Shown: one piece after another, positions 59,331 to 64,000 of the stretch | Layout of the letters: each line of letters begins with the position of its first letter | Position numbering within the stretch: position 1 is the first letter of the stretch | NCBI RefSeq assembly: GCF_003334815.1 | Contig: NZ_QOWO01000013.1 | DNA: 64,000 bases | Reading direction: 5' to 3' (one strand) | From: Escherichia coli | GTDB taxonomy: Bacteria > Pseudomonadota > Gammaproteobacteria > Enterobacterales > Enterobacteriaceae | Made by a program: the position numbers and the translations under genes | Notes under the pieces: model-generated | What the model was told of the DNA's origin: nothing | The model's database searches: none | What the model saw: only the letters and a program-made list of their open reading frames with translations

Positions 59331-59892
59331 GGGGGAGGGGGGAGATTATGGAACTTTGCTCCTTGTAAGGACTAATTATTTTTGCATATTACTTCATTAG
59401 CTGCGATGATTTTTCTTTAATATTCATTATGTTAATAAGTTCTGGATGAGTGTGCTCTCATTGGATTTTTTATCCGTCTTGTTCTGCCGCAGGATGAGAC
59501 TATACATCGTCGAGATCGCAATGATGATATGAGTTGTTCCTCCTGCGACGGCTCTAATCAAAAAAGAGCAGGAGTGCTTTTCCATCTATTGCGATGATGG
59601 CTTTATTATCTGAAGGATGACAGTCACATTTAAAAAATATTTAATCTATAGATCACAATGTAGGGTCATGGAATATATGTATACAACTATTTTCTTCTTC
59701 ACTTTTAATTATCGTATTCATTATAAAACTAAGTTAAAAAAACTCCTGGAGAGTGAGTTATTAATATATTTTTAAATAAAATTAAGTTATCATTCATCGA
59801 TGCACTTTATAGAATCATCAATGGCCATAATAGTACTATTAACTCTCAATTTTATATTTTTATCATCACTACAAATATTAACTGAATTTATA

Positions 59893-60228
59893 TCAATGAT
59901 TTTTTTTATTCTTATCTTTTATTTTATTTACTGTTTCAATGCAATCAGCGGCAAGTTGGAGTGGATTTAGATTTTTCAGATATGGTCTTATGATCTTTCC
60001 CTTACTTAATAAATAGCATGTATAGGATTCGGAAAGTCCAGCATCTATTTTGTACCTCATTATATTAGATAAGGATGTGAGAAATTCCTTGTTATCATTC
60101 GCAGCCATATATGCCAGTCCGAGTTCAGCCTCTGCGGCCTTACAGGCAAAATAGCTTAGTGAACACGCTTTTCGTCCCTCTTTAGTACTGGCTGATATTA
60201 GTGCCCATAATATTGCTTTGTCTGCCAA
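59893..60228 (-). CDS. hypothetical 111-aa ORF at the distal end of the rhs accessory array (possible orphan immunity gene)
   Basis: ORF track only; track start is a TTG and the first ATG is internal; AT-rich; no recognisable motif. Confidence 0.35.
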   Translation of the reverse strand: MADKAILWALISASTKEGRKACSLSYFACKAAEAELGLAYMAANDNKEFLTSLSNIMRYKIDAGLSESYTCYLLSKGKIIRPYLKNLNPLQLAADCIETVNKIKDKNKKNH

Positions 60229-60316
60229 ATCTAACTCTCTCTGAAATTGTCTTGCAGTAACTGCACTCGCAGAAATAGAGAAAAAAATACAATTGTTAAT
60301 AACCTTGCCATATTTT

Positions 60317-60610
60317 TTAGTCCGTAACTGTTAATGTGCTATCTGGCTCTGAAAATATTAACTCATTTAATTTTTGCATGTCATTAGATAAACCAGTTAT
60401 ACAACCCTCGGAACAGAATCGAGGTCCTAAAGACGGACCAAAAGCGTTTAAACAACTATGTATTGAAAATCCATTGCGATTATAAGTTCCTGTATTAACT
60501 GACGGTACTAATCGTATGCCGTCAGGTTTTCTATTGCTTGCTCCCGGGTCATTAACATTCCAACTCCATAGGCCTTGAGGTATTGGCCATCTATTTATAA
60601 ATGTGTACAA
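60317..60610 (-). pseudogene. probable remnant of an orphan Rhs C-terminal toxin tip
   Basis: ORF track 97 aa starting at TTG; lies directly downstream of the degenerate rhs core-end fragment but in a different frame. Confidence 0.35.
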
Positions 60611-60744
60611 CGGGGATTATTTTTACATTGCATATTATTACCAGAAGCGACTGGAATACTAAGCACATCATAAAAATTATCATCACATGGTATATCTGAA
60701 ACACACGAAAGCATACCTAAAGTTATGCTGTATAAACAGGTGGC

Positions 60745-60925
60745 TAATCCCAAGGGGATCGATTCCAGAAATCGGGTTCAACGGATACTGATAAAAATTC
60801 CACCTACCTTCCAGCCCAATCGGAGCCTGAGTGTTATACCGCCCCTGCTGCGGTTAATGTTACCGATAATAGTTATAGTACAGCCCTGATTCATCATCAT
60901 ACTACTGCTGCGGCAGTCTGATGAA
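60745..60925 (-). pseudogene. degenerate Rhs core C-terminal fragment with in-frame stops
   Basis: Reverse translation gives [54 protein letters not shown], a decayed copy of the rhs core end ([20 protein letters not shown]...[24 protein letters not shown]). Confidence 0.6.
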
Positions 60926-60934
60926 CTATTGCTT

Positions 60935-61396
60935 TTACGGATTCTCCTTATTCTTCCTTCTATCCATTCGCTTTAGCTTTTTGAGCTCTTGAAGTTTGCT
61001 CTTTGCATCAATATTACCGTTATTTACAGCGAATTCCATCCAATAAATAGCTCTATTCAAATTATAATATTCTGATAATGTTGGATTTGTATCTGATAAA
61101 AAGACCCCATAATTAAACTGCGCTGTAACATTCCCCTGAGATGCTGATCTTTCCAAGAATCGCAATTGTTTGTAAATGTTATTTTTAGTAAAGCAGTAAT
61201 ATTGATATAGTCGAAATGATGCCTCTGAATCACCATGTTGTGATTTATACTTCAGTTTCATCAACTTTTCTTCACTTAAATCATAGGTCATTGCTGTAGA
61301 CCCCATCATACTTTCGTTTTGTTTTATTTTCACATCAGCACCATGCAATTGACAAATAAAAGAGAAATAAAAAAATAGTAACAAGCATGCTTTCAT
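60935..61396 (-). CDS. yibG: Sel1-repeat protein YibG with N-terminal signal-peptide-like segment (putative immunity protein for the yibJ toxin tip)
   Basis: ORF track 153 aa; 12 nt downstream of yibJ stop. Confidence 0.82.
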   Translation of the reverse strand: MKACLLLFFYFSFICQLHGADVKIKQNESMMGSTAMTYDLSEEKLMKLKYKSQHGDSEASFRLYQYYCFTKNNIYKQLRFLERSASQGNVTAQFNYGVFLSDTNPTLSEYYNLNRAIYWMEFAVNNGNIDAKSKLQELKKLKRMDRRKNKENP

Positions 61397-61407
61397 ACAT
61401 CTACAAC

Positions 61408-62352
61408 CTATCTTATATCACTGGGTTTTTCTGGCGTACCTTGCATATTAGAAATGGGGTGCCCAGATGGCCCATATGTTATCCAATTACCAAGGTCTTT
61501 TGTTGTTATAGCCATTAGATCCTTATTTGAATTAAGGTTCGTTGGTGCTGTTAGCACTGTATCCATTTTTAACTTACCATTAGTTCCTCGCCCCCACCAC
61601 GTCCATAGCGTGTCAGGTCCTATTACATTTGTATGTAACTCTTTAGCTAATTGGCTAGCAAATGAATTTTGTCCTTTACCTGTATTACAAGAAAATAACC
61701 AAACTGTCATCCCATCTTTATAATTCCCATCAAATTTAATTAGATATGCTAGATCTTTAGCTGTCATGATACTGCGCGTTGCGGATTCAATAGATGTGGG
61801 GGTACCATGCCCCCCGATTGTGAAAACGCCTGGGATATTAATCTCATCAGCTACAGAATGGATAAGATCACTTTCGGGGTATAAATTTATATCAACCAAA
61901 CCTTGCGGATCTACATTTATGACCGGATTCAACGGATACTGATAAAAATTCCATCCCCCCTTCAGTCCAATCGGATCCTGAGTGATATACCGCCCCAGCA
62001 GCGGGTCATAATAGCGGTGGCGGTTGTAATACAGGCCGGACTCCTCATCATACTGCTGACCCGGCAGGCGAATGAGCTGCTGCAGATGATGCGGGTTCTC
62101 ATCACTCAGCAGGTTGCCCCATTCATCATATTCTGCGCACCACGCTGTTGCCCCTTCCGTGCTGATGAGCGCCAGCGGCAGGCCGCGATGGTCGCAGTGG
62201 TACAGGTGGATTTTTCGCGCCGGCGTGTACACCGGGTCCATCTGGTTTTGCATCTGCTCCACCGTCAGGCCGCACGATGCCAGCCAGCGGCGGCTTTCCT
62301 CACTCACCCGGTCAGCCAGGATTTCACTTTCCAGCCGGTCGAGCATCTGCAC
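61408..62352 (-). CDS. yibJ: orphan Rhs C-terminal module YibJ: rhs core 3' fragment fused to an alternative C-terminal tip
   Basis: ORF track 314 aa (GTG 62352 or ATG 62346); first ~150 aa nearly identical to the rhsA core end, diverging after DPQGL. Confidence 0.8.
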
Positions 62353-62388
62353 CGTGCCGGCGGGAATCCCCCACTGTGCATAGGCAAC
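61921..62388 (-). repeat. direct repeat of the rhsA core 3' end (second copy at 63678-64000 and beyond)
   Basis: long near-identical stretches, e.g. TTTTTCGCGCCGGCGTGTACACCGGGTCCATCTGGTT at 62211-62247 and 63964-64000. Confidence 0.85.
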
Positions 62389-62393
62389 TCACG

Positions 62394-63236
62394 CTATGAA
62401 CGCTTCAGCTTATCAATAGCGGAAGTTATAATTTCATTGTCATCAAACTTGTACAACATAGTATCTAAAACAGGAAGTAGCGTTTTATCACCTAATTCAC
62501 CCGCAGCTTCAATGATATCATCATAAACAGTATTTTTTTTTAACTCATCGCATAAAACAGATAAAACCCTTTTATCTTTTCTGTAGGAAAGTCCGATTAT
62601 TGCTTCAATACGGACTTCCTCATTTTTATCCTGAAGCATCTCCACAAAACAATCCCTAATATCACTATTATCATATTTATTGATATTTATTGCAAATGCG
62701 GCCCAGTTTCTGACATCTCCATTTGGATCTTTTAACAGATTAATCAATAGTGGAATTGTTGCTTTATCATTGATAACAGAAATAGCAAATGCTGTAGCAC
62801 GTCTGACATTAGTCGATTTATCAAAAGCAGTAATTTGAGATTGTTCTACTATTTTAGGTGAATAAATTGGGTTTTTCTTGCATCGCTGAGCCGTTGACTC
62901 GATTGCCGTAGCTCGAACGCAAGCGCTCTTATCATTCAATGCCATATTGTTCAAAATATTAAAAACATTATCTTCGCATTTTTTGCAAATTTTTATTTGC
63001 CCGAGTATAAATGCTCCGATATCTCTACGGATATAATTTTTATCAGAGCAGAACTCAATTGCCAATCTAACAGCGTCTTGCCCACCTCTTAACTGTAATA
63101 CTCTGGCAGATGAAATCCTTTTCAAGGAATTGTGATCATCAAGTAAGCGAAATAATTCATCATCATTTAGTTTCTTACATTGATTATATAAACCATACTC
63201 TTTACTTGCCTTTCTTTTCTGGTATGTATTTGACAT
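62394..63236 (-). CDS. yibA: HEAT-repeat protein YibA (RhsA-associated immunity protein)
   Basis: ORF track 62394..63251 (GTG); ATG 63236 preceded by GGAGG gives 280 aa; 20 nt downstream of rhsA stop. Confidence 0.82.
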   Translation of the reverse strand: MSNTYQKRKASKEYGLYNQCKKLNDDELFRLLDDHNSLKRISSARVLQLRGGQDAVRLAIEFCSDKNYIRRDIGAFILGQIKICKKCEDNVFNILNNMALNDKSACVRATAIESTAQRCKKNPIYSPKIVEQSQITAFDKSTNVRRATAFAISVINDKATIPLLINLLKDPNGDVRNWAAFAININKYDNSDIRDCFVEMLQDKNEEVRIEAIIGLSYRKDKRVLSVLCDELKKNTVYDDIIEAAGELGDKTLLPVLDTMLYKFDDNEIITSAIDKLKRS

Positions 63237-63256
63237 TGCAGGAACCTCCACAAGGG

Positions 63257-64000
63257 CTATCTTTTTTTATCGTTTGACTGTCTGGAGTGACGACAATTCC
63301 AGGCTTTCTGTGTGCTTTTTGCATCTTTAGCACTAATATCACCACAATCAATTAGTTCCTGAAGTACGTCACATCTGTCGGGTTTTTTCCCATCACTCCA
63401 GAATCTGTCATTTATTATGTCATTGACACGATCAGTTATCCCTGTGTCTGCAACATTTCCACGAGAAGCTATCATTGTTATATCTAATGCTAGTCCCGGA
63501 TTATTCAATATTAGAGAGTCAAATATTCTTTGTGATGCTGTATCGTTCCACCATTTTGTCAATGCTTTTGCAGCATTATCATCTGCTTGCTGCTGTGCAG
63601 GGCTTTTGGGCCATGGAATTGGCAAGGGGAATGGTCTAGGAAAAACTTCTAACCCCAGAGGATCTGTATTCGTAACTGGATTCAACGGATACTGATAAAA
63701 ATTCCATCCCCCCTTCAGCCCAATCGGATCCTGAGTGATATACCGCCCCTGCAGCGGGTCATAATAGCGGTGGCGGTTGTAATACAGGCCGGACTCCTCA
63801 TCATACTGCTGCCCCGGCAGGCGGATAAGCTGCTGCAGCTGATGCGGGTTCTCTTCATTCAGCAGGTTGCCCCATTCATCGTATTCTGCGCACCATTCTG
63901 TTGTCCCTTCCTTGCTGATAAGGGCCAGCGGCAGGCCGCGATGGTCGCAGTGGTACAGGTGGATTTTTCGCGCCGGCGTGTACACCGGGTCCATCTGGTT
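63257..64000 (-). CDS. rhsA: RhsA, 3' end only (core C-terminus, DPLGL junction and C-terminal tip); gene continues beyond window end
   Basis: Open reverse-strand frame from the window end to TAG at 63257-63259; ...[44 protein letters not shown]... Confidence 0.88.

Follow-up and report, generated by a model that had tools for sequence, protein, structure and literature searches.

Background

Two effectors of the Pseudomonas aeruginosa H3 type VI secretion system (H3-T6SS) with folds like the cysteine protease domains (CPDs) of large toxins, Tce1 (PA0256, DUF4347; PDB 9qpe) and Tce2 (PA2372), were described in 2026; the toxicity of Tce2 to yeast depends on Cys115, and neither protein is antibacterial or has an immunity gene (PMC13323088). 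Here we analyzed yibJ, an orphan Rhs tip encoded on the minus strand of a 64,000-nucleotide stretch of Escherichia coli DNA (contig NZ_QOWO01000013.1, assembly GCF_003334815.1; "the window" below denotes this whole stretch). We consider it likely that the tail of yibJ is a small (about 130–160 residues), cassette-encoded clan CD cysteine peptidase of the CPD/Tce1 type with a His30–Cys70 dyad, and that the adjoining gene, yibG, encodes its Sel1-repeat immunity protein. Whereas Tce1 and Tce2 are carried as free cargo inside Hcp3 rings and lack immunity genes, the yibJ domain is an Rhs C-terminal tip, and its family has a Sel1 partner in every locus examined. Tce1 is the top structural match of the yibJ tail; in sequence the two are only about 12% identical, and the match to the DUF4347 profile stays below significance.

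The CPDs of the MARTX toxin RtxA of Vibrio cholerae and of Clostridioides difficile TcdA and TcdB (MEROPS C80) are cis-acting release modules, in contrast to the yibJ tail, which we read as a terminal toxin with an immunity partner; the matched chains are also longer, at 216–251 residues versus 162. The closest description in the polymorphic toxin literature is the "Tox-Caspase" defined by Zhang, Aravind et al. (2012), which has an H, C dyad in a caspase-like fold. Most versions are releasing peptidases, some at the extreme C-terminus of RHS toxins act as toxins, and repeat arrays occur in large proteins, some of them without catalytic residues (PMC3482391). The yibJ tail fits this description, but the immunity partners listed for Tox-Caspase are Imm36 and Imm57, whereas the partner of the yibJ family is of the Sel1 type; the main text of that paper mentions neither yibJ nor yibG. 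The type of toxin is already known (Tox-Caspase in 2012, Tce1 and Tce2 in 2026), and the yibJ tail is a further predicted case. The Stv domain (PF21527; bioRxiv 10.1101/2022.08.23.504947) is likewise C-terminal and Rhs-associated, has conserved His and Cys residues, and is likened by its authors to the MARTX CPDs. It constitutes a separate family, because PF21527 matched neither the yibJ tail (E up to 10) nor 29 of its relatives (E up to 0.1). We found no prior description of a yibJ-type tail in the papers that we checked on effectors of SPI-6, a pathogenicity island of Salmonella.

The first-pass annotation of this stretch, made from the sequence alone, stated that no activity had been assigned to the tip. 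This holds for experiments, but an in silico study of the identical RhsA tail from enterohemorrhagic E. coli (EHEC) exists. Vazquez-Lopez and Navarro-Garcia (2020) submitted that tail to I-TASSER, obtained PDB 3HO6 as the best analogue (TM 0.73), interpreted the result as "small-GTPase inhibition", which is the function of the whole toxin A, and named the YibG homologue RhsAI (z5018), noting its Sel1-like and tetratricopeptide (SLR/TPR) repeats (PMC7216683). The PDB title of 3HO6 concerns the autoprocessing of toxin A induced by inositol hexakisphosphate (InsP6), that is, the protease domain. Thus, the 2020 threading of the EHEC tail onto the TcdA CPD was misread. By the account of that study, the EHEC EDL933 RhsA (EDL933_4854) has the tail, z5017, fused to rhsA and followed by the partner z5018, the same arrangement as in the O157:H7 genome described below; the study contains no dyad, family or experimental analysis.

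An Orphan Core Arm Joined to an Unrelated Tail

The yibJ frame (61408–62388, minus strand) comprises 326 codons plus a stop at 61408–61410, and lacks a PAAR domain, the YD shell and a 5′ ATG. It is open from 62388, and its first in-frame start, a GTG at 62352, would give an open reading frame (ORF) of 314 residues. PGAP labels yibJ as an N-terminally incomplete pseudogene, and recent records call the product a "DUF8616 domain-containing protein". The first 164 codons (61897–62388, minus strand; GC content about 0.6) form an Rhs core remnant ending in DPQGL, which serves as a homology arm common to rhsA. They matched positions 1111–1261 of the NCBIfam model RHS_core (E 2e-90), as well as TIGR03696 and Pfam RHS. 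The first-pass annotation described this segment as an almost exact repeat of the rhsA core end followed by unrelated sequence, and both statements were borne out: the identity to the rhsA core end inside the window is 91% (107 of 117 residues) up to DPxGL, the similarity to the RhsA tip vanishes past DPQGL, and the GC content drops there from about 0.60 to about 0.37.

The DPQGL motif itself (61897–61911, minus strand) marks the core/tip boundary and, as a motif read from the sequence, is the expected site of Rhs C-terminal autoproteolysis. The tail that follows (61411–61896, minus strand) is 162 residues long, slightly shorter than the approximately 165 first proposed, and contains both of the motifs that had been pointed out in it: VFTIGGHG at tail residues 24–31, and the Cys motif (with VWLFSC) at tail residues 64–73. 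The spacing between His30 and Cys70 is exactly 40 residues, in agreement with the suggested order of a hydrophobic strand ending in His-Gly and a second ending in Cys about 40 residues later. A scan for promoters and terminators around the yibJ orphan found sites not in excess of those in shuffled sequence, and was uninformative on expression.

Predicted Fold of the Tail

The first-pass annotation had proposed structure prediction and a fold search of the tail as a check. The model, built from an alignment of 30 sequences, is an alpha/beta domain predicted with confidence, with a predicted local distance difference test (pLDDT) of 94.9 and a predicted template modeling score (pTM) of 0.91. The highest-ranking match was Tce1 (9qpe_G, DUF4347, from the P. 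aeruginosa H3-T6SS; score 8.7), followed by the V. cholerae RtxA CPD (3fzy; 8.0), the TcdA CPD (3ho6; 7.7), Gingipain K (7.2), TcdB (6.6) and SAVED-CHAT (6.5), with further matches to TcdA, TcdB and Craspase CHAT at ranks 7–9 (6.4–5.9). The tail model shows the alpha/beta/alpha sandwich of caspases, legumain, gingipains and CPDs. In this model, His30 lies two residues past strand 24–28 and Cys70 two residues past strand 64–68, so that a His(-Gly) followed by a Cys, each just past a hydrophobic beta-strand, is found as in clan CD, with family-wide conservation. A clan CD fold, with C80/CPD and Tce1 as the nearest branch, is supported by the model and its matches; this upholds, at the level of the fold, the earlier suggestion of a caspase-, gingipain- or CPD-like peptidase.

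At the sequence level, Pfam searches with the whole ORF, the tail and 30 relatives returned no significant family in the tail (the Pfam copy searched contains no DUF8616 model), NCBIfam and PHROGs left the tail unmatched, and no meaningful match came from sequence and profile searches of the PDB in which the tail and A1, A2 and A3 were the queries. The sub-threshold Pfam matches, in individual members, included DUF4347 (9.7e-3), Peptidase_C80 (0.077) and Peptidase_C13 (0.1), beside a few unrelated families of similar E value. The Peptidase_C80 profile did not match the tail at E up to 10 and matched one of the 30 relatives at E 0.077, while the DUF4347 profile (PF14252) did not match the tail itself and reached its best E value of 9.7e-3 among matches to two of the 30 members. 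Because no clan CD Pfam family was significant at the sequence level, we assign the tail to neither C80 nor DUF4347.

Two other assignments were considered and rejected. Tox-HDC (PF15656) gave no profile match, and the conserved order in the tail is H then C, with Asp95 not conserved. For an alpha/beta-hydrolase, with its HG oxyanion motif and nucleophile elbow, the required combination of a nucleophile–acid–His order and an alpha/beta-hydrolase fold was not found.

Conservation of the Dyad and Architecture of the Family

Word-based searches detected few relatives of the tail, profile searches yielded 72, and a HMMER scan of 1.84 billion cluster representatives returned 2771 at E <= 1e-3, of which 783 also passed E <= 1e-10. 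The alignment of 30 tails includes sequences with as little as 23% identity, and just three residues in it, His30, Cys70 and Leu83, are invariant; Asp2, Asn4, Gly31 and others are at least 90% conserved. Of 236 domain copies from the wider family, 224 have the His, 225 the Gly after it and 224 the Cys, and about 5% of the copies lack the His or the Cys. Since the two residues are invariant in 30 of 30 tails and each is retained in 224 of 236 copies, the His30 and Cys70 motifs exceed what chance would produce. Based on this conservation, His30 (codon 61807–61809, minus strand; in GGHG) is the putative catalytic His, and Cys70 (codon 61687–61689, minus strand; in LFSCNTG) the putative catalytic nucleophile. 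Asp95, in a GPD motif, was rejected as a third catalytic residue: it appears conserved in close relatives, but an Asp occupies this position in just 87 of the 236 copies.

The domain lies at most 40 residues from the C-terminus in 174 of 184 single-copy proteins, and DPxG[LW] immediately precedes it in 99 of 214 proteins, which are therefore Rhs/YD tips. In giant proteins of three to seven thousand residues (P0084, P0087, P0088, P0089 and P0090), three to six copies occur. P0084 (3184 residues) has five strong copies and a sixth weak, partial match, alternating with modules resembling PI3/PI4-kinases (Pfam E 1e-13). This layout is MARTX-like, with a protease module after each effector module.

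One alternative keeps the fold but changes the chemistry. GPI (glycosylphosphatidylinositol) transamidase and asparaginyl ligases act as transamidases or ligases, and the yibJ tail might similarly be a transamidase or ligase, or act on a non-protein or isopeptide substrate in the envelope, such as the stem peptides of peptidoglycan or the link between Lpp and peptidoglycan, instead of being an endopeptidase of proteins. We regard such chemistry as unlikely, though it is the strongest of the alternatives: the nearest structural neighbors (Tce1 and the RtxA, TcdA and TcdB CPDs) are protein-cleaving peptidases, and a module repeated inside polyproteins suits the autoprocessing of peptide bonds.

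A fragment 100% identical in amino acid sequence to E. coli yibJ was present in an assembly of Terrisporobacter petrolearius (NZ_JAHZMO010000170.1, 463 bp, coverage 0.79). This fragment is almost certainly an assembly contamination, and a peptide-pattern scan of genome contigs found just this 463-bp contaminant contig.

YibG-Type Partners and the Site of Action

Directly downstream of the tail, yibG (60935–61396, minus strand) starts 11 nt past the yibJ stop. Its 153-residue product, a Sel1-like repeat protein whose N-terminal leader is hydrophobic, is presumed to be the cognate immunity protein. A Sel1-like gene occupies the position directly 3′ of the tail in all eight loci examined, namely those of E. 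coli, three Salmonella or Salmonella-like strains, Cupriavidus, Acidovorax and two metagenome contigs. Where measured, the partners are 46–48% identical to YibG, near the 44–50% shared by the corresponding tails, and they have the motif L(S/N)...GD..A.FRLY.YY in common. In Cupriavidus, VgrG and Rhs precede the tail, in that order, and the partner and then PAAR come after it.

We computed the hydropathy of the partner N-termini and found leaders in YibG (MKACLLLFFYFSFICQLHG/ADV), in the S. salamae partner (MKRILYLSMIVFFVHYKSYG/EE) and in the Acidovorax partner (MNLPKFYKIIVMIIFAINNFGVVKA/ME), while a fourth partner has two hydrophobic segments. In S. enterica (L007, 8744–8850) and Cupriavidus (L009, 5421–5482), a leader-like ORF lies just 5′ of the partner gene, out of frame at a poly-A(9) and a poly-T(8) tract, respectively; these homopolymer frameshifts could be sequencing errors, decay or phase variation. 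No leader was seen in the two metagenomic partners. Immunity proteins are normally located where their toxin acts. Because of this rule, and because several partners carry export leaders, the periplasm is the most likely location of the target, and judging from these sequences we put the chances that the toxin acts in the periplasm or envelope at about even.

The relatives with solved structures raise a different possibility, in which the tail would be an anti-eukaryotic effector like Tce2 or the MARTX, TcdA and TcdB CPDs, activated in the host cytosol (for example by InsP6), and not an antibacterial toxin. Its closest solved relatives do act or become activated in eukaryotic cells, Tce1 and Tce2 are not toxic to E. 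coli (PMC13323088), and EHEC has the tail on a full-length RhsA. Three observations nevertheless make this reading improbable. Tce1 and Tce2 have no immunity genes, in contrast to the partner gene beside the yibJ-type tail; the combination of an orphan cassette with a retained immunity gene is a signature of interbacterial polymorphic toxins; and the family lacks a conserved basic cluster for binding InsP6. At the sequence level, K/R reaches 60% or more in only two alignment columns, and the net charge of the E. coli tail is -3. Since the family has no such cluster and the tail is acidic overall, InsP6 gating of the C80 type, as in the MARTX, TcdA and TcdB CPDs, appears unlikely.

Distribution and Full-Length RhsA Context

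Of 5426 complete E. coli genomes, 3497 (about 64%) contained the tail DNA, nearly always at 99% identity or above. The yibA|yibJ junction, which marks the orphan arrangement, was detected in about 2950 genomes; therefore, roughly 400–550 genomes carry the tail in another context. One such context was seen in the O157:H7 strain 7386WT, in which a 4230-nt coding sequence annotated as "RHS element core protein" (a 1409-residue RhsA) ends in the yibJ tail and is directly followed by yibG, while yibA and the K-12-type tip are missing from the locus. Annotations that place the tail on a full-length Rhs were found in 8 of 40 evenly sampled genomes, and polymerase chain reaction (PCR) support for the fusion of the tail to rhsA in EDL933 has been published (PMC7216683). 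The EDL933 records differ in this respect: the 2001 genome is K-12-like, with z5014 and a separate z5017, whereas in the 2014 genome, and by PCR, z5017 is joined to rhsA (PMC7216683). This discrepancy suggests that the older record was misassembled at the repeat-rich rhsA locus.

The features of an orphan cassette are all present at yibJ, with a core-homology arm ending in DPxGL, an unrelated low-GC tail, a small adjoining gene, and the same tail at the C-terminus of a full-length Rhs elsewhere. Judged by its sequence, the yibJ tail with yibG reads as a genuine toxin cassette, not junk. The copy in the window, without PAAR, shell or a proper start, reads most naturally as a cassette held silent in reserve. 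With 492 nt, its core arm allows recombination to swap the resident rhsA tip, which has evidently taken place in lineages such as O157:H7, and YibG could meanwhile shield the cell against neighbors deploying a yibJ-type toxin.

That the domain is merely a non-toxic releasing or processing peptidase left at the Rhs end, with YibG as an adaptor or chaperone, is the least probable reading. In its favor, the domain often occurs as tandem modules inside a protein, flanked by other effector domains, and Zhang et al. assign a releasing role to the majority of caspase-like peptidases in polymorphic toxins (PMC3482391). But in the Rhs subfamily the domain comes last, with nothing downstream to release, Rhs proteins possess an autoprotease of their own, the small partner gene directly 3′ of the tail in eight of eight loci is typical of toxin/immunity pairs, and yibG is kept beside the orphan in most tail-carrying genomes (80% or more of the yibG–yibJ query was covered in 3422 genomes).

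Neighboring Genes in the Window

On the minus strand, the genes at the window end are ordered as the rhsA 3′ end, yibA, yibJ, yibG, another degraded Rhs remnant accompanied by a frameshifted Imm57 gene, yibH, yibI and mtlA. The rhsA 3′ end (63257–64000, minus strand) comprises the core end and the resident tip, and the gene, which is full-length, continues past the window edge. Between rhsA and the orphan lies yibA (62394–63251, minus strand), which encodes a HEAT-repeat protein presumed to confer immunity to the resident RhsA tip. PF15606 has been reported in the K-12-type RhsA tip (PMC7216683); by analogy and from the literature, the resident tip (63257–63600, minus strand), paired with the HEAT protein YibA, is probably Ntox34 (PF15606). 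In a Salmonella orphan cluster (L007, 9795–10925), the YibJ-like/Sel1 pair is directly followed by an ORF for Ntox34 and then by a HEAT protein.

A second, more degraded orphan cassette lies downstream of yibG (60317–60610, minus strand, with 60683–60901 and 59790–60311). It consists, in order, of an Rhs core remnant that, according to PGAP, is interrupted by a stop, a 97-residue ORF that PGAP leaves unannotated, and the frameshifted Imm57 gene. The 97-residue ORF contains FSIHS...SEGCITG and gave weak matches to Tlde1_dom (E 0.0083) and YkuD (E 0.038). This cassette is consistent with the Tox-LD-peptidase/Imm57 pairing of Zhang et al. (2012).

Proposed Mechanism and Implications

The support for a peptidase toxin comes from the fold matches, the independent threading of the EHEC tail, the conserved dyad, the sub-threshold Pfam matches, the family architecture, the toxin/immunity pairing, the VgrG/PAAR locus and the precedent of Tce2. 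In the mechanism that we propose, the PAAR-Rhs protein would be mounted on the T6SS spike, as the Cupriavidus locus with its VgrG and PAAR genes suggests. C-terminal autoproteolysis is established for Rhs proteins (for example, PMC7170923). By extension, the Rhs aspartyl autoprotease would cut after DPQGL and free the 162-residue domain, which starts with VDINLY, inside the shell. After delivery, the His/Cys dyad would hydrolyze a peptide or amide bond in a protein of the target cell, as the fold and the conservation imply, and in sibling cells exported YibG would bind and block the toxin.

A more specific version can be offered only tentatively: as a clan CD peptidase independent of InsP6, the yibJ-type tip would act from the periplasm and kill bacteria through cleavage of an envelope protein or linkage, and the exported Sel1-repeat protein would neutralize it. 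To our knowledge, no caspase-fold antibacterial toxin acting on the cell envelope has been characterized, and none surfaced in the searches made. An envelope substrate, if confirmed, would extend the known roles of caspase-fold enzymes in bacterial warfare.

The reading as a CPD/Tce1-type peptidase corrects the published interpretation of the TcdA match as GTPase inactivation. Both yibJ and yibG are uncharacterized y-genes, and in O157:H7 the tail is the working end of RhsA; a predicted His30/Cys70 peptidase with YibG as its inhibitor gives a "DUF" (domain of unknown function) a concrete, testable activity. The cassette is also tied to a family, of about 2800 clusters, from which giant multi-effector toxins draw processing modules as well. 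If the more specific version is correct, a CPD-like domain with a Sel1 partner would be a widespread toxin/immunity pairing carried by most E. coli.
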